Positions 7,862 to 64,000 are shown, counted from the first letter of the stretch. The stretch is DNA of 64,000 nucleotides from an uncultured Chloroflexia bacterium (GCA_963716815.1 CAVQUM010000003.1:261320-325319); one strand, 5' to 3'. Notes: a model not told the origin generated them from the sequence alone. Numbers and translations: made by a program.

Positions 7862-8013
7862 CTGGGGCGCACCCTAGCGGTCGGCTCCGCCGCCCGTCCT
7901 CGAACCTGCAGGAAATCTTCACCGAAGCTCAGTGGAGCATCGTTGACACCGAGCGTATCATCGAGTATCGATAATCGATGGTACGTGCCACCGATCAGCA
8001 CGGAGGAGGGAAC

Positions 8014-12666: not shown

Positions 12667-12752
12667 GGGGCTGCACCTCCCCGCGCCCGGTCGCACGCGC
12701 AGCGTGCCGCCCCCTCGAACGCGGACTCCGCTGGTAGGGCAGACTGCTAGCG

Positions 12753-14270: not shown

Positions 14271-14322
14271 GTTCAACCGACCCCATGACGATCGACACGC
14301 ACCCCCGCGCGCCGAGGTGCCA

Positions 14323-14784
14323 GTGACCGTGCTGCTTGGCATCGACCTCGGCGAACGCCGCATCGGCATCGCCACCGGTGACACGTCCACCGGCTCGGTC
14401 AGACCCCTGCTGACGCTGCGTCGTGGCAGTCCACGGCAGGACGCCGAGGCCCTGTCCCGCATCTGCGCTGAGCGCCACGCCGAGGCCATCGTCGTGGGCC
14501 TGCCCCTGAACATGGACGGCAGCGAGAGCGAACAGTCACAGCGCACGCGCGACTGGGTCATCGCGGTCGCGCCGGCGCTGGACCTACCCGTGTCCATGCG
14601 CGACGAGCGACGATCCAGCAGCGAAGCTGAGGATCGCATGGGTCGCCCTCCGCGAGGGCCCTCCGGCGGTCCGCCGTCGGCGGTGGCGCGTGATGCCTGG
14701 CGTGCCCGCATCGACCGCGAGGCAGCGGCCCAGATCGTCCAGCGCGAGATCGACGCCCGCAGCGAGCTGGGAGTGCACGCATGA
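14323..14784 (+). CDS. ruvX: Holliday-junction resolvase-like RNase RuvX/YqgF
   Basis: GTG start at 14323. It contains 'LLGIDLGERRIGIATGD' and 'IVVGLPLNMDGSES', and sits in the conserved alaS-ruvX-mltG neighbourhood. Confidence 0.85.
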   Translation: MTVLLGIDLGERRIGIATGDTSTGSVRPLLTLRRGSPRQDAEALSRICAERHAEAIVVGLPLNMDGSESEQSQRTRDWVIAVAPALDLPVSMRDERRSSSEAEDRMGRPPRGPSGGPPSAVARDAWRARIDREAAAQIVQREIDARSELGVHA

Positions 14785-16085
14785 GCAGCAGCACGCCTCG
14801 TGACGGTGGCGGCCGCGTCGGCATCGTCGAGAACTGGGAGCTGCGCCAGCGCAGGCGCACCGATGCCAACTCGGGCGCCTTCAAGGGCATGCTCTTCGTG
14901 GTCGTGGCCCTGCTGCTCATCACGGTCGGGGGTTGGTACGCCGCCCGGCCCATGGTCGGCCCCTTCCTGACCGACGCCTTCGAGGAGCATCCGGGCATCA
15001 TCAACTACCCCATCGTGGGCGATCTCGTCGCGACCGAGTTCGCCGATCGGCTCGACGATCCCGCCGGCAACCAGAAGCAGTCAAGTTCGTCATCGAGCCC
15101 GGCCAGAAGGTGGCCGACATCCAGGCCAACCTCGTCGATGCGGGCCTGCTCAGCGACGAGTCCGCGTTCATGTACGCGGTCGTGCGCGACCGCGTCGACC
15201 AGCTGATCAAGCCTGGTACGTACACGCTGGCACCACAGATCACGCCGGCCGGTCTGGCGGCCCGCTTCCAGGCCAACCCTGACCCGCCCACGCCGCTGGT
15301 GACGCTGGACATGCGGCCTGGCCGCCGGCTCGAGCAGACCGTAGCCTACCTCCAGCAGGAGGTGGAGGAGACGGAGCTCAAGGTCGACCCCAAGGAGTTC
15401 CTCAAGCTCGCGCGCAACCCCAACAGCAAGCTGCGCAACCAGTACCCCTTCCTCAAGCAGTCTCCTGCCGGCAGCAGCCTCGAGGGTTTCCTCTACCCGG
15501 GTACGTACGAGGTCCCGATCGACATCACCGCCGAGGAGCTCATCAACCAGATGCTGGGCAAGTTCGACACCCGCGCCGCCAGGTACGTGGGCCAGGCCCA
15601 GAAGAAGAAGGTCGACTTCTGGGACGCGCTGCGCGTCGCCAGCCTCGTGGACCGCGAGGCCAAGGCCGATAGCGACCGGCGCAAGATCGCCGGCGTCTAC
15701 TGGAACCGGCTGGACCCCAAGGTCAACAAGCAGACCGGCGGCCTGCTGCAGGCGGACCCGACGGTGGTCTACGCCACCGATTCGATGGAGCTCAAGGACG
15801 TCGCGGTCAAGGACTGGGACGACTACCTCTTCTGGGACCTGCTTGGCCGTGCCGATTACTCGACCGTGACGGTCGACCCGGAGTACGCCTCGTTCCAGAC
15901 GTACCAGAACACCGGCCTGCCCGACTGGCCCATCGTCGACCCCCTCAGCCAAGTCGATCGAGGCGGCGCTGAACCCGGCCACCGGGTCCAAGCTGCTCTT
16001 CTTCTACGCCTGCGAAGGATCGGACACGCACAACTTCGCCAAGACCTTCAAGCAGCACCAGCGCAACATCAACAAGTGCAGCTAG
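14781..16085 (+). CDS. mltG: Endolytic murein transglycosylase MltG (YceG family)
   Basis: N-terminal TM, then 'LEGFLYPGTYEV', 'ASLVDREAK', 'IAGVYWNRL', 'LQADPTVVYA' and 'YQNTGLPDWPI'. Frame breaks lie near 15080 and in the C5 run 15940..15944. The end '...FFYACEGSDTHNFAKTFKQHQRNINKCS*' is at 16085. Confidence 0.88.
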
Positions 16086-16148
16086 GCGTGGCCTGCGCCT
16101 GAGCGCGCGGCCGCGACCCGTTCCAGCTCAAGGGAGACCACACCACCC

Positions 16149-16707
16149 ATGATCTCAGTCGGAGACCTGCGCCGCGGCATCGTCATCGAGCTCGACGACG
16201 AACTCTGGCAGATCCTCGAGTACCACCACATCAAGATGGCCCGGGGCTCCGCCCAGATCCGCATCAAGCTCAAGAACGTCAAGCGCGGTCAGACCGTCGA
16301 GCGGACCTTCCAGGCCACCGCCAAGTGGCCGCGCGCCATCCTCGACACGCGCCCGGTCCAGTTCCTCTACCAGGACGGCGACGAGTACCACTTCATGGAG
16401 AACGAGACCTACGACCAGTTCCACCTCACGGCGGACCAGTTGGGCGATGCCACCAGCTATCTCATCGAAGGCATGACCCTCGACCGCACCACGTACGAGG
16501 GCGAGACCATCGGCGTGGAGCTGCCCATCTCGGTGGAGCTGAAGGTGGCCGAGACCGAGCCTGGCTTCGCTGGTGACACGCAGTCGGGTGCCAAGAAGCC
16601 GGCCACGCTCGAATCGGGCCTGGTCGTGCAGGTGCCGATCTTCGTGGAGGAGGGTGACACCGTCAAGCGTCGACACGCGCACAGGGGAGTACCAGACCCG
16701 CGTGTAG
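16149..16707 (+). CDS. efp: Elongation factor P
   Basis: Begins 'MISVGDLRRGIVIELDDELWQILEYHHIKMARGSAQIRIKLKNV'. One inserted base near 16668 fuses it to xseA in the raw ORF. The corrected frame ends with the canonical 'GDTVKVDTRTGEYQTRV*'. Confidence 0.9.
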
Positions 16708-16715
16708 CGGACATC

Positions 16716-18077: not shown

Positions 18078-18382
18078 CAGAGACACGCACACCGAACCCG
18101 GCTGCGGGCGCCGTGGGCCCGGCGGACACGGATGACATCAGCGCACTCACCTTCGACAAGGCCCTCGACGAGCTCCGTGACGTGGTCGCCCGCCTGGAGG
18201 AGGGTGGGCTGCCACTGGAGGAGTCCATCACGCTGTATGAACGCGGCGCCGCCCTGCACGAGCACTGCGGGGCGCTGCTCGACCGGGCTGAGCTGCGCGT
18301 GCAGCGTCTGGTCGACGGTGCCGGCGGAAGCGCGCCGCGCCTCGTGGACCTGCGCCCTGAAGACAGCGACGACGAGGCCTAG
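18074..18382 (+). CDS. xseB: Exodeoxyribonuclease VII small subunit
   Basis: 102 aa with 'FDKALDELRDVVARLEEGGLPLEESITLYERG'. It overlaps xseA by 4 nt. Confidence 0.9.
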   Translation: MTETRTPNPAAGAVGPADTDDISALTFDKALDELRDVVARLEEGGLPLEESITLYERGAALHEHCGALLDRAELRVQRLVDGAGGSAPRLVDLRPEDSDDEA

Positions 18383-18385
18383 GGC

Positions 18386-20366
18386 GTGGTCGCGCTACGC
18401 GAGCTTCGCGGACCGGAGGACCTCAAGGGCATCAGCCACGCCGAGGCCAGGGCGCTCTGCAGCGAGATCCGCTCGGAGATCGATCGAGACGGTGGCCAGC
18501 ACGGGTGGTCATCTGGGCAGCTCGCTGGGCGCGGTCGAGCTGACCGTCGCCCTGCACCGCATCCTCTCGAGCCCGGTGGACCGCATCGTCTGGGATACCG
18601 GCCACCAGGCCTACGCCCACAAGCTGCTCACCGGGCGACTCGACCGCTTCGATACCCTGCGCCAGCTGGGCGGCATCGGCGGCTTCCCGCGGCGCTCGGA
18701 AAGCGAGCACGACGTCATGGACGGCGGCCACGCCGGCACCGGCATCTCCATCGCGGAGGGCCTGGCCCTGGCCCGTGACGCTCGCGGCAGCGACGAGCGC
18801 ATCGCGGTGGTGGTCGGTGACGCAGCCCTCATGAGCGGCCTCTCGCTCGAGGCCCTCAACGACATCGGCCATCGCAAGACGCGCCTGCTCATCCTGCTCA
18901 ACGACAACGAGATGAGCATCAGCCCGTCGGTCGGAGCGGTCAGCGCGTATCTCTCGCGCATCAAGCTCTCCCGCCAGTGGCGCCGTTCGCGGCGCCGTTT
19001 CGACAGCGACGTGGCGCGCGTGCCGCTGATCGGCGGGTTCCTCCTGGAATGGTCCCGGCGCATCCGTCATGCGGTCGTCGACCTGAGCCAGCCGGGTCGG
19101 CTGTTCGAGGACCTGGGTGTGACCTACGTGGGTCCGGTCCCGGGCCACGACCTGGCCGTGCTCGACTCCACGCTGCGCAAGGCCTTCGAAGAAGAGGACA
19201 AGCCCATCATCGTGCACGTGCGCACGCGCAAGGGCTACGGCTACCGCCCCGCGGAAGCGGACAAGATCGGCTTCCACGGTGCCGCCCTGCCGCCCATGCC
19301 CAGCCAAACGATGGCGATGCCTTCGGTCAACGGCTCGGGTCCGTCGGACGGCGAGGCCAAGCCGCCCGCGGAGGAGCGCGCTCAGCCCAAGGGGCCAAAC
19401 TACACCGCGGTCATGGCCGACGAGCTCGTGCGCATCGCGACCGATGACCCGCGCGTCGTCGCCGTCACCGCGGGCATGCCCACCGGCACGGGCATCTCCG
19501 CCTTTGGGCGGCGCTTCCCCGAACGCACCTACGATGTGGGCATCGCCGAGCAGCACGCCATGGCCATGGCTGCCGGCCTGGCCCTTGCCGGACAGCGCCC
19601 CTTCGTCGCGCTCTACTCCACCTTCCTGCAGCGCGCCTTCGACCAGGTCGTCCACGATGTCTGCCAGAACGACACGCCGGTCGTCATCGGCATCGACCGA
19701 GCCGGCCTCGTGGGCGAGGATGGCACCAGCCACCAGGGCATGTTCATGCTCTCGGCCTTGCGTCAGCTGCCCAACCTCGTCCTGGCCGCACCACGTGACG
19801 AGCAGCAGCTGCGGCGCTTGCTGCGCACGGCCTTCGCCCAGGACCACCCCTTCGCCATCCAGTACCCGCGTGACGCCGGCTTCGACCTGCCGGCCGTGGA
19901 CCCCCGACCGCTCGAGATCGGTCGCGGCGAGGTCCTGCGCGAGGGCTCGGACATCCTCATCGTCGGCCTCGGCCCCATCATCGCGCGGGGCCAGGCCGTG
20001 GCCCACGGGCTGAGCGCGGCCGGCTGGTCAGTCGGCCTCCTCGATGCCCGCTTCGTGCGGCCCCTCGACCGGGCGCTCATCCTCGAGCAGGCGCGCGACG
20101 TACAGCTCATCGTCACGCTCGAGGAGAGCGTCCTGCCCGGCGGTTTCGGCTCGGCCGTGCTGGAGGCACTGGCCGACAGCGAGGAGCGGTCGTCATTCGC
20201 CCCGGTCAAGCGCATCGGCCTGCCCGACGGGAAGTTCGTCGACCACGGCTCGGTCTCCGACCTGCGTGCGCTCGTTCGCCTCGACGAGGCCGGGATCTCG
20301 GCCCAGGTCGAGGCAGCCATCGCCGTGCACGGGCTCTCGCCTCGTGGCGCTCCCGTCGAAGCCTGA
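18386..20366 (+). CDS. dxs: 1-deoxy-D-xylulose-5-phosphate synthase
   Basis: Contains 'PEDLKGISHAE...EIRSEI' then 'IETVASTGGHLGSSLGAVELTVALH', plus 'VVGDAALMSG' and 'IAEQHAMAMAAG'. One frame break lies near 18480. Confidence 0.92.
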
Positions 20367-21156
20367 GACCAAGGGCGCCCGCAGGCCCCGGGTGCAACGC
20401 CTCGACCAGCTGCTCGTCGAGCGTGGTCTGGCGCCTTCACGCAGCCGGGCACAGGCGCTGCTCCTGGCCGGTGCCGTGCGCGTCGGCGCGGGTGATGCCG
20501 CCCGCCGGGACCGTCGTGCCGGGGAGCGACTGCCCGTGGACGTCGAGATCGAGGTCGAGACGCCGCCGCGATTCGTCTCGCGCGGTGGCGAGAAGCTGGC
20601 GGGCGCGCTGGAGGCCTTCGCGATCGATCCGGCCGGACGCGCCTGCCTCGACGTGGGCGCTTCGACCGGCGGCTTCACCGACTGCTTGCTGCAGGCCGGC
20701 GCCGTGCGGGTCTACGCCCTCGACGTCGGCCGCGGCCAGTTGGCCCAGGCGCTACGCACCGACCCCCGCGTGATCAGCCTGGAGCGGACGCACGCAGCCC
20801 GTCTGGACCCGGCGGACGCCGATCCACTGGCGCTGCCCGAGGTGGTGAGCCTCGCGGTCGCCGACGTCTCGTTCATCTCACTCACGCGCCTGCTGCGCGG
20901 CGTGGCCGCACACGTTTCGCCCGGTGGTGACATCCTGCCCATGGTGAAACCGCAATTCGAGCTCGGTCCGAGCGAGGTACCCAAGGGCGTGGTGCGTGAC
21001 CCGGCCGCGCGGGCCCGCGCCGTGACCCGCGTGCGGGAGCATGCGCGCGACCTCGGTCTCGAGGTCGTGGCCGAGGTCGAGTCCCCGCTGGTCGGGCCGT
21101 CGGGCAACCACGAGTTCTTCCTGCACCTGCGCGTGCCCCCGGGCGGACTCGCATGA
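20344..21156 (+). CDS. tlyA: TlyA-family rRNA 2'-O-methyltransferase (S4 domain plus FtsJ-like MTase)
   Basis: Contains 'RLDQLLVERGLAPSRSRAQALL', 'FVSRGGEKL' and 'LDVGASTGGFTDCLLQ'. The start is uncertain; I chose the GTG at 20344. Confidence 0.8.
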   Translation: MALPSKPETKGARRPRVQRLDQLLVERGLAPSRSRAQALLLAGAVRVGAGDAARRDRRAGERLPVDVEIEVETPPRFVSRGGEKLAGALEAFAIDPAGRACLDVGASTGGFTDCLLQAGAVRVYALDVGRGQLAQALRTDPRVISLERTHAARLDPADADPLALPEVVSLAVADVSFISLTRLLRGVAAHVSPGGDILPMVKPQFELGPSEVPKGVVRDPAARARAVTRVREHARDLGLEVVAEVESPLVGPSGNHEFFLHLRVPPGGLA

Positions 21157-21989
21157 AACGGCTCGGCTTCGCCTACAACCCCACCTCGGAACAGGCCGTG
21201 GAGCTGCGCGAACGCGCCCTCGGCTGGTGTGACCAGCACGGACTCGAGGCCTGGGCCCGGCCGGCGGTGGAGGCCGGCGACGAGCCGCAGCTGCCGGTCA
21301 CCGAGGCCATCGTCGTGCTCGGCGGTGACGGCACCTTCCTGCGGGCAGCACAGGCCGTGGTCGACGTACGCGTGCCCATCCTCGGTGTCAACGTGGGCAA
21401 GGTCGGCTTCCTCTCCAAGGCCGAGCACCATGGGCTCGAGGACGTGCTGGCTCAGCTGAAGGAGGGCGACTACGAGCTGGAGCCCCGGCTCATGCTGGAG
21501 GTGCGCGTGGTCCGCGTCGATCGGGCGCGCCCCGGCTCGTCATATCGCGCGCTCAACGAAGCGGCGATCGTGCGCGGGCGACACGTGCAGGTCATGCGCC
21601 TGGCCGTGGACGTGGGCGATTCGCGCGTGGCCACCTATGTCTGTGATGGCGTGGTCGTGGCCTCGCCGACCGGCTCCACCGGCTACAGCTTCAGCGCCGG
21701 TGGCCCCATCATCGAGCCCACCAGTCGCAGCATCGTGGTCACGCCCATCGCGGCCTACCTCACGCCCCTGCGTTCGAGCGTGGTCGGACCCCAGCACGTG
21801 GTCACGGCCACGGTCAAGGCCGCGCACGACTGCCTCGTCAGCATCGACGGCCGCGAGGACGTGGCGCTCGAGGTCGGCGACCGCGTGGAGATCCGCGCCT
21901 GCGAGCAGCCCATCACCTTCCTCCAACCGCGTGGCGCGCTGCCGTTCTGGGACCTGCTGCGCCAGAAGGCCACGCTGCTGCCCGACTGA
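21153..21989 (+). CDS. nadK: NAD kinase
   Basis: 278 aa with 'IVVLGGDGTFLRAA', 'GVNVGKVGFL' and 'SPTGSTGYSFSAGGP'. Confidence 0.92.
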   Translation: MKRLGFAYNPTSEQAVELRERALGWCDQHGLEAWARPAVEAGDEPQLPVTEAIVVLGGDGTFLRAAQAVVDVRVPILGVNVGKVGFLSKAEHHGLEDVLAQLKEGDYELEPRLMLEVRVVRVDRARPGSSYRALNEAAIVRGRHVQVMRLAVDVGDSRVATYVCDGVVVASPTGSTGYSFSAGGPIIEPTSRSIVVTPIAAYLTPLRSSVVGPQHVVTATVKAAHDCLVSIDGREDVALEVGDRVEIRACEQPITFLQPRGALPFWDLLRQKATLLPD

Positions 21990-37034: not shown

Positions 37035-37221
37035 GCAGGTCCCCCTTCTTTCATGCGGGCCGGGTTCGCTAGTGGCTCAGCACGGTCCATAGCGGCCATG
37101 GTCACGGGGCCGTGCTTCGCAGCCTCCCGCTATCGATGATTCTCCCCCGGCTGGCAAGGATGGAGTAGCCTACATCGGCCACCGCCCGCCCTTCAAGTGG
37201 CATGGCCACCTATGCCGGCAG

Positions 37222-48408: not shown

Positions 48409-48973
48409 ATGCGCTGTCCGAACTGCGGGACGCTGGACGGCCGAGTCATCGATTCCCGTGATCTCGACGAGTCGACGACCGTCCGACGGCGCCGCGAATG
48501 CTCCGGTTGCCGCTCGCGCTACACCACCTACGAGCGCGTGGAATCTGCGCGTCTGGTAGTGGTCAAGACGGACGGCACGCGCGAGGAGTTCGACCGCGAC
48601 AAGCTCGCCGATGGACTGAAGAAGGCGCTGGTGCGCCGCCCGGTGGGGGCGGGTGCGGCCGACGGGGCCGCGGACGAGATCGAAGCTGCACTGCGCGCCC
48701 AGGGCCTCAACGAGATCCGCCTCACGCGAGATCGGCCAGCTGGCCATGGAGAAGCTGCGCGCGCTCGACCACATCGCCTTCATCCGCTTCATGAGCGTGT
48801 ACCAGTCGTTCGACGACATCGAGCAGCTCAAGCAGGAGGTCGACGCCCTTTACGAGGAGCGCAGCGACCGCGTACCCGGCCAGACGACGCTGCGCCTGGT
48901 CGCGGAAGATGGGGCCATCACGCCCATCGGCCCGCGGGGCACGCCGCGCCGCCGACCGACCAAGCGCAAGTAG
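48409..48973 (+). CDS. nrdR: Transcriptional repressor NrdR
   Basis: Zn ribbon 'MRCPNCG...CSGC' and ATP-cone '[16 protein letters not shown]'. After a frame break near 48722 it reads '[32 protein letters not shown]'. Confidence 0.88.
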
Positions 48974-48981
48974 GGGTTCCC

Positions 48982-50622
48982 ATGAGCGTCCTCGCCGACC
49001 GCGATATCCGTACCGCCATGCAGGAAGGGCGCATCCGCATCGATCCCTTCGACGAGGACTGTCTGCAGCCATCCTCGGTCGACCTCCACCTCGACCGCGA
49101 GTTCCGCGTCTTCCACAACTACCGCTACGCACGCATCGACCCACGCGTGGAGATGCCCGACCTGACCGAGCCGACCGAGGTCGACGGTGACGAGCCGTTC
49201 ATCCTGCATCCGGGCGAGTTCGTGCTGGGCCAGACGCTCGAATGGGTCGAACTGCCCGACGACCTCGTGGCTCGCCTGGAGGGCAAGGCACTCGCGCTCG
49301 ACACGCCGGTGCCAACGCCCAGCGGCTGGCGCAGGATCGGTGACCTGGAGATCGGCGACTACGTCTTCCACGAGAGCGGACGGCCGATCCCGATCATCGA
49401 TGCTACGGATGTGATGCTGGACCGCCCGTGCTATGAGGTCATCTTCTCCGATGGCCAGCGCGTCATCGCCGACGCCTCGCACCAGTGGGTCACCATCGAC
49501 AAGAGCGGACGTCGTCGCGGACGCCAGGTCCGCACGGTTCGCACGACCGCCGAGATCGCCGAATCGGTACGTCGCCAGGGCGAGATGAATCACCACATCC
49601 CTCTCGCGTCGCCAGTGGAGTACCCGCATCGTCTTGACCTGCCGATCGAGCCGTACACCCTCGGTGCCTGGCTCGGCGACGGGACCACGACGACGGCCGA
49701 GATCACCTGCTGTGACGAGGGTGTCCTCGAGCGCATCAGCGGGGACGGCTACACCGTCAGGCGCACTGGCTATGGCACACGCTTGTACCGCATCGGTGGG
49801 ACCGGCAGCACGAGAGACCTGCTGAGCGGTCGATACACTCGCAACGGCTCGCTCTCGAGTGAGCTCCGCAACCTCGGACTGATGAACGGTAAGTTCGTGC
49901 CTCGGCCATACCTGGAGGCGAGCGTCGCGCAGCGGCAGGCACTTCTCGAAGGCCTGATGGACACCGACGGCTTCGTGGACGACGTCGCCGGCCGCTGCGA
50001 ATTCGTCAGCACCAACGAGAGCCTCGCGAACGGCGTGCTGGAGCTTGCCGCGAGCCTCGGCTTCAGGCCGATCAAGTCCGAAGGCCGAGCGATGCTCGAT
50101 GGAGTCGACCACGGCCTCAAGTACCGTGTGAAGTTCACGCCGGATCGACCGGTCTTCGGACTCCAGCGGAAGGTGGCCCGCCAGCGGCCGAGCGACTCGC
50201 GGTTCCACCGCTTCCGGGCGATCGACGCGGTGCGTAAGGTCGCCTCGGTTCCCGTTCGCTGCATCCAAGTGGCCTCGCCCGATGGCGTCTTCCTCGTCTC
50301 GAAGTCGTTCATCCCGACGCACAACAGCTCCCTCGGACGGCTGGGACTGCTCATCCACTCGACCGCGGGGTACGTGGATCCAGGCTGGAAGGGCAACCTC
50401 ACGCTCGAGCTCTCGAACGTGGCCAACCTGCCCATCGCGCTCTACTTCGGGATGCGCATCGGCCAGATCTCGTTCTTCGAGATGTCCAGCCCGGTCGAGC
50501 GGCCATACGGCAGCAAGGGCCTGGGCTCGCGCTACCAGGGACAGCGTTCACCCACCGCCAGCGGCGCCTACCGCGACTTCGAGGACAGCCGCCGCACGAC
50601 CAAGGGAGGCCCGCGCAGCTGA
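48982..50622 (+). CDS. dcd: dCTP deaminase interrupted by an intein
   Basis: The N-extein is '[23 protein letters not shown]...[30 protein letters not shown]'. The C-extein is '[31 protein letters not shown]...'. The exteins join to the conserved G(K/R)SSLGRLG active-site motif. Confidence 0.9.
49288..50325 (+). mobile_element. Intein (346 aa) with a LAGLIDADG homing-endonuclease domain; Ala1 and a class 3 (WCT) signature
   Basis: Block A is '[26 protein letters not shown]'. Block B is '[13 protein letters not shown]'. The LAGLIDADG motifs are '[10 protein letters not shown]' and '[12 protein letters not shown]'. Block F is 'PVRCIQV' and block G is 'FIPTHN|S'. Confidence 0.88.
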
Positions 50623-53456: not shown

Positions 53457-53532
53457 GCCCCCGTAGCTCAGTGGATAGAGCGGCAGCGTCCTAAGCTGCG
53501 CGTCGGCGGTTCGAATCCGTCCGGGGGCGCCA
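53457..53532 (+). tRNA. tRNA-Arg (anticodon CCT), CCA encoded
   Basis: The acceptor is GCCCCCG/CGGGGGC, the D-arm GTAGCTCAGTGGATAGAGC, the anticodon stem GCAGC/GCTGC with loop GTCCTAA, the T-arm GGCGGTTCGAATCCGTC, and the 3' end is G-CCA. Confidence 0.92.
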
Positions 53533-53642: not shown

Positions 53643-53853
53643 GAAATCGGAAAAGACTCCTCGCCTCGACCCCTCGTACACATAGAGGTCGGTGCCACGT
53701 GCTTCACTAGCACGGACGCAGACCGGTTCGGGAGAGGAGGGGTATGGATCCGGAGGTCGTGGTGCGAGCGCAACACGGTGACGAGGCCGCGTTCGAGTCG
53801 ATCTCCGTCGCCGGTTACCCGCGCCTCTATCGCATCGCCTACGGCATCCTACG
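53643..53853. repeat. Segment Y, copy A: duplicate of the ECF-sigma upstream region plus its first 37 codons (partner 59773..59983)
   Basis: About 210 nt align by eye with only scattered mismatches, from gaaatcggaaaagactcct to ggcatcct. Similarity stops abruptly at 53853/59983. Confidence 0.8.
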
Positions 53854-53854
53854 A
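53744..53854 (+). pseudogene. 5' fragment of an ECF sigma factor gene (first 37 codons only)
   Basis: 'MDPEVVVRAQHGDEAAFESISVAGYPRLYRIAYGILR' against the intact 'MDREVVVRAQHGDEAAFESITVAAYPRLYRIAYGILR' at 59874. The sequence after it is unrelated and Arg-rich. Confidence 0.75.
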
Positions 53855-53986
53855 CCTCTCGATCGCGTCGGATGGATCGGCCTGGATGGTCGTGCGTCGG
53901 AAGTCCGGGCCGGACGCGACCAGGCCCGACGGCATCTACATCCTCGATCCGGATCGCGCGACGGGTCAGCGCACCGGAGGATGACG

Positions 53987-54805: not shown

Positions 54806-55887
54806 TGCGGCTCTCGATGACCATCGAGTCACACCGGCGCCTTCTCCGCGTCGCTGCGACGACCGCCCTGGTCGTGGCATCCGTGATCGGCGGAAGCGCG
54901 GCCCTCGCCGCGATCGGGCCCGAGCCGACCGAGCCGACCCTGGCGGGCACCTGGTCAAGATCCCGGACGCCCCGTGGGGCACGGTGTTCCCGGCCGCGGC
55001 CTTCACCGGAGAGGAGATGCTCGTCGTCGACCTCGAGAGCGGTCGCACGCCGAACCTACCACCCGGAGAACCGGACCTGGACCCCCACGAGACGGCACCG
55101 AAGGCGTTCGACGGCCTCAGCCCGTCGGTCTGGACCGGCACGGAGCTGCTGGTGTTCGACCGCTACAAGGCCGGCCGTTCCTACGCCTACGACCCCGAGG
55201 CGCGGAGCTGGCGCCGGCTCGCCCCCTCGCCGCTCAAGGAGCGGTGGCATGCGGAGTGGGCTGGCGGGCAGGTCGTGGTCCGCGGACGCACGAAGCTCGA
55301 ATGGGCGGCGTACGACGTGGCGGCCGATACATGGCGGTCGCTGCCGGCCCCGCCCGGCGCCCATCGGTTGTGGAGCGTGCACTGGACCGGCGACACGCTG
55401 CTCGCCGTGGCGGGTGGATACGGGGAGCGCCTTCCCCATGTGGTCGCACTGGACCTCGATACCGATATCTGGGGAAAGCCGATGAAGGGCCCAGCGGACG
55501 GGGCCCCGCGGAACCCGAGTGGATTGGCGACCAGCTCGTCTTCGTCTTCGGGTGGCCGTGGGACGACGAGCCGGTCGCCGACGCGACCTTCGACCTAGCA
55601 AGCGGCGAGTGGACCCTCGTGGACTTCGACTGTCCGATCTTGACCGGCCACGCGTCTTCGACTGGCGAGCTCTTGGTCAGCAGCCACTTCGCCCTCGATC
55701 CGGACACCGGTGTCTGTCAGGCCTTGCCCGACCGTGACCTGTGGGCGGCCTTCACCGAGGACGATGATCGGAGCTGGATCCTCAACCTCTGGACCGGCGA
55801 CCAGTTGCTGTTCTGGTCGGGGCGAACGAGGACACCAGCCCGCCCAAGACCGACGGACTCGCCTTCAGGATCGGCGTGATCCAGTGA
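54805..55887 (+). CDS. Membrane-anchored Kelch/beta-propeller-like repeat protein (paralog of 63086..64000)
   Basis: The ATG overlaps the upstream stop. The TM is 'VAATTALVVASVIGGSAALAA'. It contains 'IPDAPWGTVFPAAAF', 'WTGTELLVFD' and 'YAYDPEARSWRRLAPSPL'. About 3 frame breaks lie near 54950, 55505 and 55825. Confidence 0.5.
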
Positions 55888-55910: not shown

Positions 55911-57510
55911 ATGGGTCTCGCACTGGCGACTTCCGCGTTGATCATGGCGTCGACGCCCGCCCTCGCCGGTGGGGGCGCGTGGTCCGCCGCGGGCGGCATC
56001 GACGAGTGCGTCGACGCAGGCGCGGAGTTCTTCACCGGTGACCTCCAAGGGGCCAGAGCACGACGTTCTGCTTCACGATGGCGCCGGGGGCGAGGGCCGC
56101 GAACTCCACCTACTTCATGTCCTTCCCTGACACCCGACCGGCATCTGCGCGAGTGATGGCCGCGAACGGCTGCTACCTGGGCGTCGCGATCCCGCAGTGG
56201 GAAGCGAAACGGCGACTCGTCGTCCGCGCTGCCGAGGGCAAGCGAAGGGTCAACGACTACGGCCTGCCCGAGAGGTACGACGGCGAGTTCAGGACGGCGC
56301 GGGCGCGCGTCGACTGCGCACGGGCTGCCAGTGCACCGCCTTCGATCCCGGCCACCCTCCCCGGGTCCGCGGTCGCGGCCGACGAGGCTCCGCTCGATCT
56401 CCTTTCGAAGCTGGAGACCGAGGAGGTCGAGCCTGGCGTGCTTCGCATCGTCTCGGACGGGCACCGTGACCTTTCCGGAGCGACCGCGGCCGATGCGCCC
56501 GAGACCTACGCGGAATACCTCGATACCCACGTCGCGCGCAACCTGGTCGTCGGGCGCGACGGTCGTGTGTGGGTCATCGAGCCTGACCGGCTCTTCCGGC
56601 TCGGGTCGCCAACCGACATCCGATGGCCACAGCCGACCCGACATGTCTCCTTCAACGACCTGGAGGTGTCGCCGGACGGCCGCTTGTGGCGCCTGGTCCC
56701 CATTCGGCGCCTCCAGTCATTCGACGGCGAGACCTGGCGTCGGCACCTCCAGCGCCAGCTCCCGTGGAGCATCGAGATGGAGCCCGACGGCACCCTGTGG
56801 GCTACCTGGACCGAGTCGGGCGTCTGCTTCGAACCCGAGGGCTGCACACCGACCCGGTTGGGACGCCGCGACCGCGAGGGCTGGTCGGTCGTCGACATCC
56901 CGAAGCTCTACCACTACTCCGGGAGCCATCTGGCGGTCACCGGCGACGGCGAGGCCTGGACGTGCTGCAAGCACGACCCACAGAAGCACGGCCCGGGGCT
57001 GCTGCGGTTCGACGGGCGACGCTGGTACGTGGAGCAGCCAGCCACCGGTGTCGATGCGGACATGGTGCTGCGCATGGATGCCGCGGAGGACGGCACCCTC
57101 TGGCTGCGTCGTTCGACATCGGCACTCGAACGCTACCGGGATGGGGTGTGGACGGTCTTCACCGATGCTGACGGCGTCCCGCCACTCGGATACACCGGCA
57201 GTGAGCTGCAGAAGCTGGTGGCCGCGCCGGACGGAGGCGTTTGGGTCGCGCCGGCGGTGTCGACGGGTCATCCCGACGACGAGCTGCGGTGCGACGGCGT
57301 GGCCCACTTCGATGGGTCGATCTGGACCCGCTATCTCCGTGACACCTGCGTCTTCTCGATGGACGTCGCGCCGGACAGATCCTCTGGCTCCAAGCCGCCA
57401 GGGTCGACATCGAGAACATCGACTCGTACCGGCTCGGCGAGACCGTGGAGCCAGTCCAGTCCTACGCCATCAGGCCGGGAGGTGGCAAGCGCTCGGCACC
57501 CGGCGACTGA
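55911..57510 (+). CDS. Secreted protein with two-component-regulator-propeller-like repeats
   Basis: RBS aggagg. The signal peptide is 'MGLALATSALIMASTPALAGG'. The repeats include 'GRDGRVWVIEPDRLFRLG', 'SPDGRLWRLV...FDGETWRR', 'EPDGTLWATW', 'AEDGTLWLRR...YRDGVWTVF' and 'APDGGVWVAP...FDGSIWTRY'. Frame breaks lie near 56050 and 57380. Confidence 0.5.
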
Positions 57511-57535
57511 GCAGGACGAGCAGGCCAGCACGTCG

Positions 57536-57608
57536 ACCCAGCGGGTACCACGCGAGCGGGTCCGACGGTTTGCTTTCCGAGCCCCCGAGTCCGTCCGGGG
57601 GCGCCAGC
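57536..57608. repeat. Right-end segment plus orphan tRNA-Arg 3' end, copy B
   Basis: 57590..57608 (tccgtccgggggcgccagc) is identical to 53516..53534. 57536..57589 aligns with 59692..59743 (acccagcgGgtaccaCgcGagcgg...ggtttgcTttccgAgcccc). Confidence 0.75.
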
Positions 57609-57678
57609 TCATACCCAACCTATGAGCTGTGCGAGGCGTCGGTCGTGTCAAGCCTGGTGCGGATGCGGTCTCCTCGGG
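57607..57678. repeat. Segment X, copy B
   Basis: See 53533..53605. It starts with the perfect hairpin gctcata-cccaacc-tatgagc. Confidence 0.6.
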
Positions 57679-59691: not shown

Positions 59692-59761
59692 ACCCAGCGC
59701 GTACCAAGCCAGCGGTCGGGTGGTTTGCCTTCCGCGCCCCTTCATCCGTCCGGGGGCGCCA
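59692..59761. repeat. Right-end segment plus orphan tRNA-Arg 3' end, copy C
   Basis: 59744..59761 (atccgtccgggggcgcca) is identical to 53515..53532. The upstream 52 nt align with 57536..57589. Confidence 0.75.
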
Positions 59762-59772
59762 TGGCCACGCAC

Positions 59773-59983
59773 GAAATCGGAAAAGACTCCTGGACTCAAC
59801 CCCTCGTGCACATAGAGGTCGGCCGGGCGTGCTTCACTAGCATGGAGACAGACCGGTTCGCAACAGGAGGGGTATGGATCGGGAGGTCGTGGTGCGAGCG
59901 CAACACGGTGACGAGGCCGCATTCGAGTCGATCACCGTCGCTGCCTACCCGCGCCTCTACCGCATCGCCTATGGCATCCTGCG
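59773..59983. repeat. Segment Y, copy C: native ECF-sigma upstream region plus 5' coding end
   Basis: See 53643..53853. Confidence 0.8.
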
Positions 59984-60434
59984 CGAGCACGGTGCCGCCG
60001 ACGATGCTGCCCAGACCGCGCTCGTGGACATCTGGCGCCGCCTCCCACGACTGCGTGGCCCTGAGAAGTTCGACGGTTGGTCGTACCGGCTGCTGGTCCG
60101 CATCTGCTACGCCGAGGCCAAGCGCCGGCCGAAGTGGCTGCCCGGCGAAGCCATCACGCGCTCGGTCGAGCCTCGCGCCGCCGATCCGTTCGGCACCGTG
60201 CTCGACCAGGACCAGCTGGAGCGGGCGTTCGGGGCCCTGACCGTCGACCACCGCGCGGTCATCGTCCTGCGCTACCTGCTGGACCTGCCCCTCGAGCAAG
60301 TGGCGCAGGCGCTCGACATCCCCGTCGGCACGGTCGGCTCGCGACTCCATCGTGCACTCGAGGTCCTGCGCGCGAGCGTCGAGGCTGGCGAACGCACCGC
60401 ACCGCTCGAAGCCAACTCGGAGGGACGCTCATGA
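59874..60434 (+). CDS. ECF-type RNA polymerase sigma-70 family factor
   Basis: 186 aa, intact, with RBS aggagggg. Region 2 is 'AAFESITVAAYPRLYRIAYGIL...AQTALVDIWRRL' and region 4 is 'VIVLRYLLDLPLEQVAQALDIPVGTVGSRLHRA'. Confidence 0.88.
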   Translation: MDREVVVRAQHGDEAAFESITVAAYPRLYRIAYGILREHGAADDAAQTALVDIWRRLPRLRGPEKFDGWSYRLLVRICYAEAKRRPKWLPGEAITRSVEPRAADPFGTVLDQDQLERAFGALTVDHRAVIVLRYLLDLPLEQVAQALDIPVGTVGSRLHRALEVLRASVEAGERTAPLEANSEGRS

Positions 60435-61111
60435 GCGACGAGCTGTTCACCCCGTTCGTGCAGTCCTGGCTCCGCTCGAGCGACCTGGTGCCACCGGAGC
60501 CCCTCGACCGAGCCGACCGCGTGATGGCTCGCGTCCGGTCCACGCGCCAGCTCGGCCGCCACTGGCCACCGGAGGTCTTGGTGACCGAGGTCAAGCCGCC
60601 CACCGACGGAGCCGACTTCGGCGGCCTCCCCGCTCGGGCTCGGCAGGTCCGCTGGCTGCCGAGCCGGTTCTCGGTCGTCATCGCGATGCTCGTCGCGGTG
60701 GTGGCACTGCTGACCGCCAACCTGCTCCTGCTCGACCCGGCACCGATCGAGCAGCGAAGCGTCGTCCCACTCCCGGGAGCCGAGGAATCCGCCGCGCCGG
60801 CCAAGGCCATCGGCTGGATCACCCAACCCGTTCGGCTCGAAGCGGACGCGCTGCGACTCCACCTCGGCGACGCCGTCGCGACGGGCGCAGCCGAAGCCTC
60901 GGTCGAGGGCTCTGGAGACCAGGCTCGCCGGCGAGAGCTGGCAGTCGACTGGCGTGAGAACGACACGTGGTACCAGCTGCAGTTGTACCTCGCTGCCGAC
61001 GACACGCACTGGTGGATCAGCGAGCTCATCACCACCGACGGCACCGAGGCCGGCAACACCGTCACCTTCGATACCGCGTCCCTGCCTCGGATCCGCTCGG
61101 AGACGCGCTGA
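60431..61111 (+). CDS. Single-pass membrane protein translationally coupled to the ECF sigma (candidate anti-sigma factor); it may continue into the next ORF
   Basis: ATGA overlap with the sigma stop. The cytoplasmic N-terminus is 'MSDELFTPFVQSWL' and the TM is 'FSVVIAMLVAVVALLTANLLLL', followed by an extracytoplasmic domain. There is no zf-HC2 motif. Confidence 0.55.
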   Translation: MSDELFTPFVQSWLRSSDLVPPEPLDRADRVMARVRSTRQLGRHWPPEVLVTEVKPPTDGADFGGLPARARQVRWLPSRFSVVIAMLVAVVALLTANLLLLDPAPIEQRSVVPLPGAEESAAPAKAIGWITQPVRLEADALRLHLGDAVATGAAEASVEGSGDQARRRELAVDWRENDTWYQLQLYLAADDTHWWISELITTDGTEAGNTVTFDTASLPRIRSETR

Positions 61112-61192
61112 TCGACGATCTTCGACTCGTGGGCACGCCCGACACCGACAGCACCCTGACCGGGCCGGTCGACCTGGAGTTCGACGGATTCG

Positions 61193-63095
61193 GTGCTCCG
61201 GGCCTTCGAACCCGGCACCGGTGTCGATCGCGTGGCGACGGTGGTCGAGCGCGTGACCGCGACGGGCGACACCGTCGCGCCAGGGGTGCTGCGGGTCGTC
61301 GACGACGGCACGAGCCACGGCCTAGAGAGCGTGTCGCACGTAGCCGTGACCCCCGATGGCCGCGTCTGGGCGGCCACGCCGACCCATCTCTACGAGCTCG
61401 GCGTCGAGGGCGGTCTGCGCGCCATCGACGGTGGACCACAGCGCATCGCCGGCCTCGAGGGCGGCGCGGACGGTCGGCTGCTGGTACCTGCCGATGGTGG
61501 CGGATGGTTGGTCACCGACGGCAAGACCTGGCCGAGCTCGGCCAGGCCGGGGTCGGAGGCGTACAGCGATGCGGCGCTCTCCGCAGATGGCGCGCTCTGG
61601 GGCGTCACCGATGATCCCGTCATGTATGTCGATCGAGCCACCGAGGATGGTGTCTCGACCGCGTTCGGGATGGAGTTCGCCGACCCCTCGGTCGCGGAGC
61701 TCGAGGACAGCCCGAGCGATCGTTCGGTCCTCGCGCTCGCCGACGGCTCGGTGTGGGTCTCGACCGGCCTCGGAGCAGGCCTCGTGCGCTTCGATGGGGC
61801 GGACCCGGAGGCCGGCGGCGTGGGGCACCAGCCGCTCGGCGCCTACGAGGTGGGGCAGCGCGTCCTTGACATCGCGGGCAACGACGACGGGGTGGTCTGG
61901 GCACTCCTCGAGGACTCCGCCGGACAGTATCTCGGGCGTTTCGACGGCTCGACGTGGTCGCTGCATGCCTGGGACGACGTGGTCGCCGGGCTGCCCGTCT
62001 CCACGGCCGGCGGCCGCGGGCGCTCCTGGACGTTCCCGGACGAGATCGGGGCCGTGCTGTCCGATGGTGCAGTGGTCGTCGCGCCCATCGACGTGTACGC
62101 CGACAGCGGCGTATCCGCGCTGCTCCGGTACGACGGCGACGCCTCGACGGTGGCGTTCGACCTTGGGCTCGACGCTGCCGCCGCGACGCCCGATGGTCGC
62201 GCCTGGGCAGCCAGCTGGTCCGGCCTGCACCTGCTCGACCCGGCCCTCTGGCCCGGCGTGGCCGCCGCGACCGGGGCGCCCGACGACCACGTGGCTCCCG
62301 GTCGGCTCGTGCTCGATCTGCGGCCCAGCCGTCGGCTCGAACAAGCCGTGGCCTACCTCCAGCGCCAGACCGAGCAGACCGACCTCGCGCTCGACCCGGA
62401 GGCATTCCTCCGACTGGCTCGTGACCCGAGTGACCACTGGCGCGAGCGCTACCCGTTCCTGCAGGAGGCTCCGGAGGGCAACAGCCTGGAAGGCTTCCTC
62501 GCCTCCGGGACCTACGAGGTGTCGGCGGACATTGCCGCCGAGGACCTCGTCACGCAGATGCTCGAGGAGTGGGACGAACAGATGTCGTGGTACGTCGCGG
62601 AGGCAGACCGGAGAGGTATCGACTTCTACGACGCACTGGTGATCGCCAGTCTCGTCGAGCGCCAGGCCCGCGACGACTCCGACCGCGCGAGGATCGCCGG
62701 CGTCTACTGGAACCGGCTCGACCCCGAGGTCTACGGCGACCAGACCGGTGGCCTGTTGAACGCTGACCCGGCTGTCGTCTACGCCACCGAATTCGATGGC
62801 GCTCGAGGATCTGTCGGTCGCGGACTGGGACGAGCATCGGTTCTGGGAACTGCTCGGCGTCGATGACTACAGCGCCGTCGAGGTCGACCCTGAGTACGCC
62901 TCCTTCCACACCTACCGCTCCACGGGGCTGCCCGACTGGCCCATCGCCACCCCGAGCGCGGCCTCGATGGCGGCGGCGCTGGACCCGGACACCCGCGACG
63001 GCAACCTCTTCTTCTTCGCCTGTCCCGGCTCTGCCACGCACGAATTCGCGCAGACCTTCGAGCAGCACTTGGAGAACACCGCGCGATGCGAGTGA
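61193..63095 (+). CDS. Propeller-repeat domain fused to a C-terminal YceG (MltG-like) domain
   Basis: The repeats include 'TPDGRVWAAT', 'SADGALWGVT', 'LADGSVWVST...VRFDG', 'NDDGVVWALL...GRFDGSTWS' and 'TPDGRAWAAS'. Then come 'LEGFLASGTYEV', 'IASLVERQAR', 'IAGVYWNRL', 'LNADPAVVYA' and 'YRSTGLPDWPI'. A frame break lies near 62790 (gaattcgatg where gaatcgatg is expected). Confidence 0.6.
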
Positions 63096-64000
63096 TCTTG
63101 GCGTTGGCGCTCTCGCTGGTGCTGTCGTCTGCGGCCGTCACGCAGGCGGCAGACCGGCCCACGCCGAACGAGCTGGCCATCTTCTCCGACGACGTCCAGC
63201 GGCAGGTGATGCCCTGGCTCGAACAGCAACCCGAGTACGCAGGTATGTGGCTCGACCGCGACGCAGTCCAGATCGTCGTGAGCCTGACCGACGCGGACCC
63301 CGAGATCATCGCCGGCCTCGATGCCCGGGTCCCCGGTGGCGGCGACGGCTGGCGCCTGGAGGTGCCCGCCTACACCTGGAAGCAACTGAGCCGGGCGACG
63401 CACGAGGCACACAGGATCAGGTCCGGGTTGCCCGGCGCCGGGCGGCTGGAGTCGTCCTGGGTCGATGTCGAGGAGAACCGGGTCGGCCTGCGCTTCGAGC
63501 GCGGCGCCATCAAGCGCGCAGACATGGCGTCGGCCGAACGCAAGTGGGAGCGGGCGCTGGGCGTGCCAAGCCACATCTGGCGCGAGGAGATCGCGCCGTC
63601 GACACCGCACGCCGGCGAGTGGGAAAAGCTGCCCGACGCCCCGTGGGGCGCAGCCAACGCCGTCGCGCTGGCCGTCGATGGGGACATGCTCGTGCTCGAG
63701 CCCGAGACAGGCCGGGTCCTCCGCTACGACACGGACGTCCGCACGTGGAAGCGCGGAGCACGGGCACCGAAGCGCTTCGACTACTGGGCCCCGTGGGTCT
63801 GGACCGGCACGGAGCTGGTCGTGCTCGACGGCCGTCGATCCGCGCGTGTGTTCGCGTACGACCAGGCGGAGGATCACTGGCGTGGACTCCCGCGATCACC
63901 CCTTGACGGGGCGGACCTCGCGGTCTGGGCTGATGGGCGAGTGGTCGTGGCGGACATCGAGACGGAGAGCGAGGTCGACATCGAGCGCTCGCTGGCTGTG
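63086..64000 (+). CDS. Secreted protein with a Kelch/propeller-like C-terminal region; the 3' end lies outside the window
   Basis: ATG at 63086. I checked by hand that 305 codons are open to the window edge. The signal peptide is 'MRVILALALSLVLSSAAVTQA'. 'LPDAPWGAANAVALAV', 'WTGTELVVLD' and 'FAYDQAEDHWRGLPRSPL' parallel 54805..55887. Confidence 0.6.
   Translation, partial: MRVILALALSLVLSSAAVTQAADRPTPNELAIFSDDVQRQVMPWLEQQPEYAGMWLDRDAVQIVVSLTDADPEIIAGLDARVPGGGDGWRLEVPAYTWKQLSRATHEAHRIRSGLPGAGRLESSWVDVEENRVGLRFERGAIKRADMASAERKWERALGVPSHIWREEIAPSTPHAGEWEKLPDAPWGAANAVALAVDGDMLVLEPETGRVLRYDTDVRTWKRGARAPKRFDYWAPWVWTGTELVVLDGRRSARVFAYDQAEDHWRGLPRSPLDGADLAVWADGRVVVADIETESEVDIERSLAV

Follow-up and report, generated by a model that had tools for sequence, protein, structure and literature searches.

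Within a 64,000-nucleotide stretch of DNA from an uncultured Chloroflexia bacterium (GCA_963716815.1 CAVQUM010000003.1:261320-325319; hereafter the window, G+C content of 70%), we identified a gene for an extracytoplasmic function (ECF) sigma factor that overlaps a gene for an 887-amino-acid, single-pass membrane protein. The ectodomain of this protein ends in a YceG domain, related to the lytic transglycosylase MltG, in which glutamine replaces the catalytic glutamate. We lean, with modest confidence, towards the view that the two genes encode a sigma/anti-sigma pair whose sensor has gained an inactive lytic transglycosylase with which it would bind glycan strands or peptidoglycan synthases. 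We searched the literature, including the 2021 ECF reclassification paper, and no publication that we found describes a fusion of an anti-sigma factor to YceG or MltG; the first model-generated reading of the sequence (the initial annotation) had likewise not recognized the domain combination as a described system.

Protein families were scanned with Pfam and NCBIfam, RNAs with Rfam at gathering thresholds and with ARAGORN, and structures with AlphaFold models and Foldseek. The independent loci that we compared are the window, L001, L002/L005 (one contig), L003, L004 and the distant relatives L006-L010. Six fusion sequences were available, of which five are complete proteins, and these were compared with 109 MltGs of the same lineage. 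Coordinates of the features are collected in Table 1.

One gene in three reading frames

As deposited, the sensor appears as three open reading frames (ORFs; 60431..61111, 61193..62866 and 62796..63095). The initial annotation saw two frame breaks, at ~61085 and ~61190, and proposed that, if these were assembly errors, the membrane protein and the fusion behind it would form one polypeptide of ~888 amino acids. Both breaks are present, and there is a third at 62792/3, at which the initial annotation hinted only by advising that the region be resequenced. The G+C content at third codon positions indicates unbroken coding in the frame order 2, 1, 2, 0, with switches at ~61090, 61193 and 62793. 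Three single-base edits produce an ORF of 2,664 nt (887 codons and a stop) that has no internal stop.

The corrected junctions resemble those of related proteins. The restored RIPLG at the first agrees with ERIPLGQVL of an intact ortholog (P0001), the second contains DGFVLRAFE where orthologs have DGLVLRAFEPG, and the third contains YATESMALEDL where the MltG of the same organism has VVYATDSMELKDV. Over its whole length, the corrected protein aligns to an intact 887-amino-acid ortholog from a short-read Logan assembly of a public sequencing run (P0006) with 89.9% identity and 0 gaps across 887/887 residues. Other intact orthologs have similar lengths: 882 amino acids for P0001 (69% identical), 884 for P0007 and 882 for the protein encoded at 8001..10649 of L004 (metagenome-assembled genome (MAG) contig CAVVYR010000007.1; 75% identical). 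The single polypeptide first proposed is thus borne out. The gene copy in L002, which comes from the same project as the other MFD contigs, is fragmented too.

Two housekeeping genes of the window are broken in the same way. In mltG, one single-base indel near 15072-15078 and another within the C5 run at 15940-15944 split the YceG profile over two frames; two fixes give a protein of 434 amino acids, which fits the 434-439 amino acids typical of the lineage. One extra base near 16668 removes the stop of efp (16149-18077) and creates a false 642-amino-acid fusion with xseA (exonuclease VII large subunit), whereas EF-P read in the +1 frame has its canonical end, VDTRTGEYQTRV, followed by a stop. 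Because efp and mltG are broken alike, we read the breaks in the sensor gene as assembly errors, as the initial annotation had suspected. They are very probably single-base homopolymer errors of a nanopore or other long-read assembly: all three indels lie in homopolymers of 2-3 nt. The contigs related to the window are MAGs labelled ‘uncultured Chloroflexia bacterium, MFD...’, which we take to be nanopore assemblies.

If the breaks were instead genuine, the locus would hold either three separate genes or one pseudogene in decay, with a sigma factor that is unregulated or regulated in another way. The deposited assembly does contain three breaks, from which gene callers produced proteins of 226 and 557 amino acids, and decay is conceivable in a neighbourhood that has been rearranged (a truncated copy of the sigma gene 5′ end at 53643-53883, and tRNA remnants). 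We nevertheless regard this explanation as extremely improbable, given the like breaks in efp and mltG and the fact that one base at each indel restores ortholog-like sequence. The gene is otherwise free of in-frame stops and lesions, its third-position G+C stays at the coding level throughout, and the ratio of nonsynonymous to synonymous substitution rates (dN/dS) with the window copy included is 0.22-0.35. We are close to certain that the three ORFs are one gene, that the frame breaks are sequencing errors and that the gene is intact in the organism.

A codon-position hidden Markov model flagged approximately 12 further frame switches on the same strand, none ending at a stop codon (for example, at 5385/5502, 6171, 8843, 12516, 23527, 47554, 50722, 55515 and 57376) and that could be indel errors; the switches that we verified are those of mltG, efp and the sensor gene. 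Caution is advisable with any gene call on this contig. More generally, what looks like a multi-ORF ‘fusion’ in a long-read MAG should be checked for frameshifts before it is interpreted.

A sigma factor coupled to a membrane protein

The first gene of the pair is, as initially annotated, an intact ECF sigma factor gene whose TGA stop codon shares an ATGA with the start codon of the membrane protein (a 4-nt overlap). The 186-amino-acid product has sigma2 and sigma4 domains only (Sigma70_r2, E = 3.9e-10; Sigma70_r4_2, E = 1.7e-13), falls within the ~170-200 amino acids expected of ECF sigma factors and passes the general NCBIfam model TIGR02937 (sigma70-ECF; 70.7 bits versus a cut-off of 42.9). 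None of the specific NCBIfam sigma models reaches its cut-off (the best, TIGR02983 SigE-fam_strep, scores 112.9 bits versus 141.55), and the protein is not assignable with NCBIfam models to a named ECF group or equivalog such as SigE of Streptomyces, SigW or RpoE. Gap-free alignments to the sigma factors of four close orthologous loci show 82-93% identity.

The pairing is strictly conserved. In 9/9 independent loci, the sigma gene lies directly upstream of the sensor gene with the same 4-nt overlap. The upstream product is a full ECF sigma factor of 185-187 amino acids in seven of them; in L008 and L010 the contig ends within the gene, and the remaining part matches the sigma C terminus, weakly so in L010 (E = 6e-8 over 42 residues). 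The genes on either side vary from one distant locus to another, and the pairing holds for relatives of the sensor that are 27-29% identical and lack YceG. The two proteins also diverge in step: the identity of the sigma factor falls from 93% to 53% while that of its partner falls from 75% to 27%. Such adjacency of a sigma factor and a membrane partner across divergent genomes is what is expected of a sigma/anti-sigma gene pair, and we consider it likely, from gene context and protein layout, that the membrane protein is the anti-sigma factor.

Several results weigh against this assignment. Pfam searches of the N terminus, run on individual sequences as well as on eight members of the family at E ≤ 1 and E ≤ 10, returned no anti-sigma domain, a PDB search with the family profile at E ≤ 10 gave no anti-sigma match to it, and its helices are predicted with a predicted local distance difference test score (pLDDT) below 50. 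Class I anti-sigma domains (ASDI or zf-HC2) comprise ~100 amino acids (101 on average in one survey), often with an HxxxCxxC motif (PMC7406223); the sensor has no match to them and its sole cysteine pair lies in the YceG domain. Short, two-helix class II domains (CnrY-like), which are under 50 amino acids, can escape class I models (PMC7406223). The N terminus has no sequence similarity to these, although two low-confidence helices are predicted. Because the N terminus matches no anti-sigma family or structure, the case is one from context, and only part of the anti-sigma-like anchor first proposed stands: the coupling to the sigma gene recurs at every locus, and a recognizable anti-sigma domain is lacking.

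These negative results, together with the shortness of the cytoplasmic region, could also mean that the membrane protein, instead of being an anti-sigma factor, is a co-transcribed target of the sigma factor, such as a surface propeller or peptidoglycan-binding protein, with the sigma factor controlled in some other way. We think this quite unlikely. It would leave unexplained a strict overlap that persists amid varied flanks down to 27% partner identity, and the cytoplasmic N-terminal motif is among the best-conserved parts of the sensor across the family. A short N-in segment followed by one transmembrane helix and a large ectodomain is also the canonical anti-sigma layout in the ECF literature.

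Upstream of the sigma gene, a stretch of ~85 nt is near-invariant in five loci, including L003, whose sensor is a 48%-identical ortholog, and is partly similar, by eye, at the distant locus L007. It ends in a GGAGGG ribosome-binding site. We made no confident assignment of -35 and -10 elements in this block, even when distant loci were included in the comparison, and no Rfam family matches it at gathering thresholds. Its conservation makes the block a candidate for an autoregulated promoter.

Architecture of the sensor

The presumed sigma-binding part of the sensor, its cytoplasmic N-terminal region, carries the motif MSDExFxPxVQSWLRSSDxxPPEPL...TRQLGRHWPPE, which is invariant among close orthologs and still discernible in relatives at 27-29% identity. 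The low-confidence helices modelled by AlphaFold in this region are short (residues 8-14 and 26-39). The only hydrophobic helix of the protein follows at residues 81-101 (at 77-97 in the model of P0001). It is preceded by four lysine or arginine residues and one aspartate or glutamate and followed by one and four, respectively; this positive-inside pattern places the N terminus in the cytoplasm and agrees with the single-pass topology initially annotated.

Next to the membrane, residues 126-262 form a beta-prism domain that belongs to no Pfam family. The homologous segment of the related sensor P0004, modelled alone, has a pLDDT of 94.3. Foldseek returned LAMP-1/2/3 domains and a V-ATPase Vo accessory subunit as the best matches (query-normalized TM-scores of 0.53-0.66); likeness to these folds was all that the search found, and it is uninformative on function. 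The same unannotated family includes dozens of secreted metagenome proteins of ~300-350 amino acids (P0016, P0018, P0026 and others).

The beta-prism is followed by a propeller of approximately seven blades. The propeller repeats reported by the initial annotation are supported by seven PDGxxW-type motifs at residues 309-588, by a Pfam Reg_prop match on the window ORF (PF07494; 24.1 bits versus a cut-off of 20.4) and by the fold. In Foldseek, the propeller best matches the sensor domains of two Bacteroides hybrid two-component systems, BT4663 (4a2l/4a2m) and BT3049; the matches also include 3v9f, NHL domains, tectonin and the PknD sensor. The family profile retrieves many sensor kinases with PF07494/PF07495 (Reg_prop/Y_Y_Y). 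AlphaFold confidence for this part is moderate only. Repeats and fold together are those of a Reg_prop sensor propeller.

An MltG-derived domain without its catalytic glutamate

The last ~275 residues of the sensor share 58% identity (E = 2e-120) with residues 150-433 of the reconstructed MltG of the same organism, in line with the paralogy initially proposed. PF02618 matches the intact orthologs with E values of 2e-38 to 1.5e-39 over profile positions 71-274, and the AlphaFold model, with a pLDDT of 85-96 outside a lineage-specific insert, has the YceG fold: its Foldseek matches are 4iiw (Lmo1499) and the MltGs of Acinetobacter baumannii (8yq7) and Escherichia coli (2r1f). The insert, of ~35 residues, and two cysteines (Cys864 and Cys886, the only ones in the sensor) are common to the YceG domain and the MltGs of the lineage. 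The nearest database relatives are stand-alone MltGs of ~436 amino acids that are 53-64% identical, one of them from Candidatus Limnocylindrales. Other YceG fusions were absent from the best 120 matches of the domain, a set that also lacks the known fusions, so that others may exist elsewhere. The match begins at profile position 71, or MltG residue 150, and the transmembrane anchor and LysM-like part of MltG are not found in the fusion. We conclude from these comparisons that the domain arose by duplication of a lineage mltG, with loss of the cytoplasmic tail, the transmembrane helix and the LysM-like domain.

The initial annotation had called this part a catalytic domain, a label that does not hold, as the catalytic glutamate is replaced by glutamine in every fusion sequence (6/6; Gln745 in the window). 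The same column holds glutamate in the MltG of the organism, which retains VDREA, and in at least 95% of the 109 lineage MltGs, such that ASLVEREA of the enzymes has become ASLVERQA throughout the clade. In an alignment with E. coli MltG (NC_000913.3), the glutamine of all six fusions falls on residue 218, the second glutamate of ASIIEKET, and E218Q is a published catalytically inactive variant of that enzyme (PMC8135044). Glu307, the catalytic residue of Mycobacterium abscessus MltG (PMC11533991), falls in the same column when Tyr392, Phe393, Val394 and Phe404 of that study are used as numbering anchors on the 8yoa alignment.

Despite this substitution, the domain is well preserved. The alignment of the lineage MltGs has 97 columns with a conservation of at least 95%, and all five complete fusions keep 79 of these unchanged. 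Among orthologs, it is the most conserved domain of the sensor (82-86% amino acid identity, dN/dS of 0.22-0.24), ahead of the propeller (64-80%, 0.26-0.31) and the beta-prism (58-77%, 0.35-0.37). Catalysis is therefore predicted to be lost from a domain that is the best conserved of all, which points to a non-catalytic module under purifying selection. We think it very likely, on the evidence of the alignments, that the domain is catalytically dead, and a role in binding or sensing fits the lost glutamate better than an enzymatic one.

The preserved surroundings of the active site, including LEG, DPxVVYA and TGLPDWPI, and the glutamate that remains two residues upstream (Glu743, in VERQA) might instead indicate a lytic transglycosylase that works with another acid, so that the sensor would be a membrane-anchored enzyme co-regulated with the sigma factor. 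This is highly unlikely. E. coli MltG has the same upstream glutamate (IIEKET) and is nonetheless inactivated by E218Q, so that this residue would not rescue activity. The MltG encoded in the window has aspartate at that position, which is thus not the conserved acid, and glutamine is fixed in the fusions at a site where the enzymes almost always keep glutamate.

A recent addition to an older sensor

We searched 1.84 billion representative proteins exhaustively with HMMER, using the YceG-less ortholog P0004 as the query. The search returned 3 proteins at E ≤ 1e-30 and 24 at E ≤ 1e-10, and YceG was carried by one 50%-identity cluster only (representative P0003). YceG-bearing sensors have so far been found in a narrow clade of soil Chloroflexota MAGs. 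The expectation that orthologous ECF loci carry the fusion is correct for the close orthologs and fails for L003 and the distant relatives.

Several points count against our preferred reading of the YceG domain. The L003 ortholog (608 amino acids, 48-50% identical) stops right after the propeller, and the more distant relatives (625-664 amino acids) all lack YceG as well; the domain is therefore not needed for basic signalling. All fusions come from a narrow clade, in which the sigma factors are 91-93% identical, and the 6/6 glutamine count represents few independent events. The LysM-like domain, which is the proposed peptidoglycan-binding part of MltG (PMC8135044), is missing, and the affinity of the fusion for glycan is therefore not assured. 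Judged from its distribution, the YceG domain is a recent accessory that was added to an older ECF-coupled propeller sensor, and not the core of the module.

Relation to known systems

The closest likeness is to the polysaccharide-sensing anti-sigma factors of the SigI/RsgI systems of Clostridium thermocellum (PMC10328401, PMC6852018 and PMC4711584). RsgI proteins also join an N-terminal anti-sigma part, a transmembrane helix and a conserved membrane-proximal domain to a C-terminal carbohydrate-active sensor module, which differs between paralogs. Here, however, the partner is an ECF sigma factor and not SigI, Pfam scans find no RsgI_N domain, and the LAMP-like domain has no detected similarity to the periplasmic domain of RsgI. 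The module was recruited from a peptidoglycan enzyme rather than from a carbohydrate-binding module or glycoside hydrolase for plant polysaccharides.

In the sigmaV-RsiV system, RsiV is a lysozyme receptor that undergoes ligand-triggered regulated proteolysis (PMC4183432 and PMC5014341). Both systems have a sigma gene translationally coupled to a gene for an N-in, single-pass protein with a large ectodomain that is expected to bind a cell-wall-related ligand directly. In contrast to RsiV, the sensor described here has no detectable anti-sigma domain, its ectodomain (beta-prism, propeller and YceG) is unrelated, the presumed ligand is the glycan strands or synthases of the cell itself and not a host enzyme, and proteolysis is only proposed. 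Because it has neither an RsiV nor an RsgI_N domain and its partner is an ECF sigma factor rather than SigI, the module belongs to neither the RsiV nor the RsgI family.

Individual parts have clear counterparts. The YceG domain shares with MltG (E. coli b1097; 2r1f, 4iiw, 8yq7 and 8yoa) its fold, 53-64% identity, the insert, the cysteine pair and a location outside the membrane. It differs in the glutamine at the catalytic position, in having neither a transmembrane anchor of its own nor a LysM-like domain, and in its placement at the far end of a ~500-residue ectodomain, which frees it from the membrane surface. The propeller is most similar, by structure and profile, to those of the Bacteroides Reg_prop sensors such as the heparin sensor BT4663 (4a2l/4a2m), which are also extracytoplasmic glycan-sensing modules on a transmembrane signalling protein; the window sensor has one propeller instead of two, no Y_Y_Y domain, and a sigma factor as its output rather than a kinase or response regulator. 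Finally, the inactive LytM factors EnvC, NlpD and DipM, which regulate peptidoglycan remodelling (PMC10336132), offer a precedent for a hydrolase fold without catalysis that is selected for binding or regulation. The fold differs (LytM versus YceG), and the LytM factors activate autolysins and are not part of a transcription-signalling protein.

Possible mechanism

In most envelope-stress pathways, whether ECF sigma factors or two-component systems, the signal that is actually sensed is still debated. We propose that the N terminus of the sensor would sequester the sigma factor at the membrane, in the manner of a short class-II-style anti-sigma domain, and that a ligand event at the ectodomain would free it through proteolysis (probably regulated, as for RsiV, RseA and RsgI) or through a conformational change. 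The freed sigma factor would then drive its own operon, and the output would probably include the secreted Kelch and propeller genes downstream.

The dead MltG domain could act as a non-cleaving binder of the substrate of MltG, that is, of nascent, uncross-linked glycan strands near the membrane. Alternatively, it may bind the partners of MltG, the peptidoglycan synthases. MltG interacts with penicillin-binding proteins, and the inactive E. coli E218Q variant still lowers the transpeptidase output of PBP1A/1B in vitro (PMC8135044); a dead domain can therefore retain partner binding, and binding to synthases is plausible. Either ligand would report the status of cell-wall synthesis to a sensor that ancestrally used the propeller alone. 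By analogy with MltG, we rate glycan strands or synthases as the sensing input at an even chance at best. The more specific proposal, that the glutamine-substituted domain is a dedicated receptor that holds nascent uncross-linked strands uncut and thereby activates the ECF sigma factor, is a speculative one about which we are doubtful.

The same biochemical results admit a different role for the domain on a true anti-sigma sensor. It could serve as a localization or effector module that docks the protein at sites of peptidoglycan synthesis, competes with MltG or modulates penicillin-binding proteins, which would make the protein bifunctional. The effect of E218Q on PBP1A/1B and the strong conservation of the domain suit this possibility, as do the YceG-less relatives, which presumably signal through the propeller alone. 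We consider it unlikely, although the sequence by itself fits either model, as a single-copy regulatory protein would be a poor stoichiometric competitor of MltG.

A binding module on the sensor thus remains our preferred reading, and it makes the fusion a concrete, testable candidate for the direct sensing of peptidoglycan strands or synthases. If the domain is indeed a dedicated receptor for nascent strands, an imbalance between glycan polymerization and cross-linking would be converted directly into ECF sigma activation, in what would be the first sigma pathway with a pseudo-lytic-transglycosylase sensor and a ‘Rosetta stone’ for how wall synthesis is read from outside the membrane. The domain is in any case a clear case of an MltG-derived pseudoenzyme. 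Interest is limited by the narrow distribution, the uncultured hosts and a function that is wholly inferred; although the hosts are uncultured Chloroflexota, both the YceG domain (~275 amino acids) and the pair of sigma factor and sensor N terminus are small enough for heterologous testing.

Table 1. Features of the sigma/sensor locus and related elements in the window (coordinates counted from the first nucleotide of the window)
Feature	Coordinates	Strand	Basis or detail
Conserved non-coding block, candidate autoregulated promoter/leader	59773..59873	+	Ends in ribosome-binding site
ECF (group IV) sigma factor, 186 amino acids, intact	59874..60434	+	Pfam Sigma70_r2, Sigma70_r4_2, Sigma70_ECF
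Single-pass membrane sensor (anti-sigma-like), 887 amino acids, one gene	60431..63095	+	Third-position G+C frame profile, corrected ORF, orthologs
Cytoplasmic N-terminal region, residues 1-80, presumed sigma-binding part	60431..60670	+	Conserved motif
Transmembrane helix, residues 81-101, N-in/C-out	60671..60733	+	Hydrophobic stretch FSVVIAMLVAVVALLTANLLLL, charge pattern
Beta-prism domain, membrane-proximal, residues 126-262	60806..61216	+	LAMP-like fold, no Pfam family
Indel 1: one C missing from C run (CC)	61093..61094	+	C added gives ...SLPRIPLGDAL...
Indel 2: one G too many (GG for G)	61192..61193	+	G dropped gives ...FDGFVLRAFEPG...
Beta-propeller, Reg_prop/NHL type, ~7 blades, residues 263-612	61217..62266	+	Motifs, Pfam, Foldseek
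YceG (MltG-like) domain, residues 613-887	62267..63092	+	PF02618 positions 71-274; predicted inactive
Codon CAG, Gln745, at catalytic-glutamate position of MltG	62663..62665	+	Alignment with E. coli MltG (NC_000913.3)
Indel 3: one T too many (GAATTCG for GAATCG)	62792..62793	+	T dropped gives ...VVYATESMALEDL...
Next operon gene, secreted Kelch-like protein	63086..64000	+	Signal-peptide-like N terminus, weak Kelch_1; runs off window end
Housekeeping mltG, paralog of fused domain	14781..16085	+	Two single-base indels; YceG profile split over two frames

Operon and genomic neighbourhood

The sigma gene, the coupled sensor gene and the secreted Kelch-like genes form one operon. The start of the first Kelch-like gene overlaps the sensor stop by 10 nt. 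In L001, the region orthologous to the window from 63086 onward (12640-21800) holds five or six co-directional genes, several with 4-nt overlaps, whose large products contain Kelch, BNR-like or propeller repeats and have no assigned function. This type of Kelch/propeller array is likely to be part of the sigma regulon.

A distant pair of loci has a context unlike the Kelch array of the focal clade: in L007 (3001-5710) and L009 (4920-7923), the sigma/sensor pair adjoins a Fur-family regulator and a CbiMNQO-type cobalt/nickel energy-coupling factor (ECF) transporter.

Upstream of the operon in the window, a tRNA-Arg(CCT) occupies 53457-53532. Behind it, the sigma upstream block occurs a second time, together with the initial ~37-45 codons of the sigma gene (to 53883). 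This copy shares 88% identity with 59773-59900 over 53643-53770, and its ORF begins MDPEVVVRAQHGDEAAFES... and then diverges. Two further remnants of a tRNA 3′ end occur at 57559-57606 (within the region 57559-57669) and at 59714-59761. The tRNA-Arg is also present in L002, where 210 nt separate it from the intact sigma gene downstream. Between the two copies of the sigma block are a gene (54960-55849) that is ~70% identical to the 368-amino-acid Kelch gene that is fifth downstream in the L001/L002 operon, and a 515-amino-acid ORF (56078-57625) with PDGxxW repeats and a weak Reg_prop match; parts of the downstream array have therefore been duplicated. The arrangement looks like a partial tandem duplication, or like island insertions at the tRNA-Arg site beside the operon, although it may be an assembly artefact from a mixture of strains.

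Two RNA predictions lie elsewhere in the window, both on the minus strand. ARAGORN calls a 97-nt tRNA-Ser(GGA) at 50101-50197, inside a frame-1 coding segment of the opposite strand (48933-50605); the Rfam tRNA model has no match there at its gathering threshold, and the call is possibly spurious. At 37049-37136, Rfam identifies a c-di-GMP-II-GAG riboswitch aptamer (50.1 bits versus a gathering threshold of 40; E = 6.9e-07).

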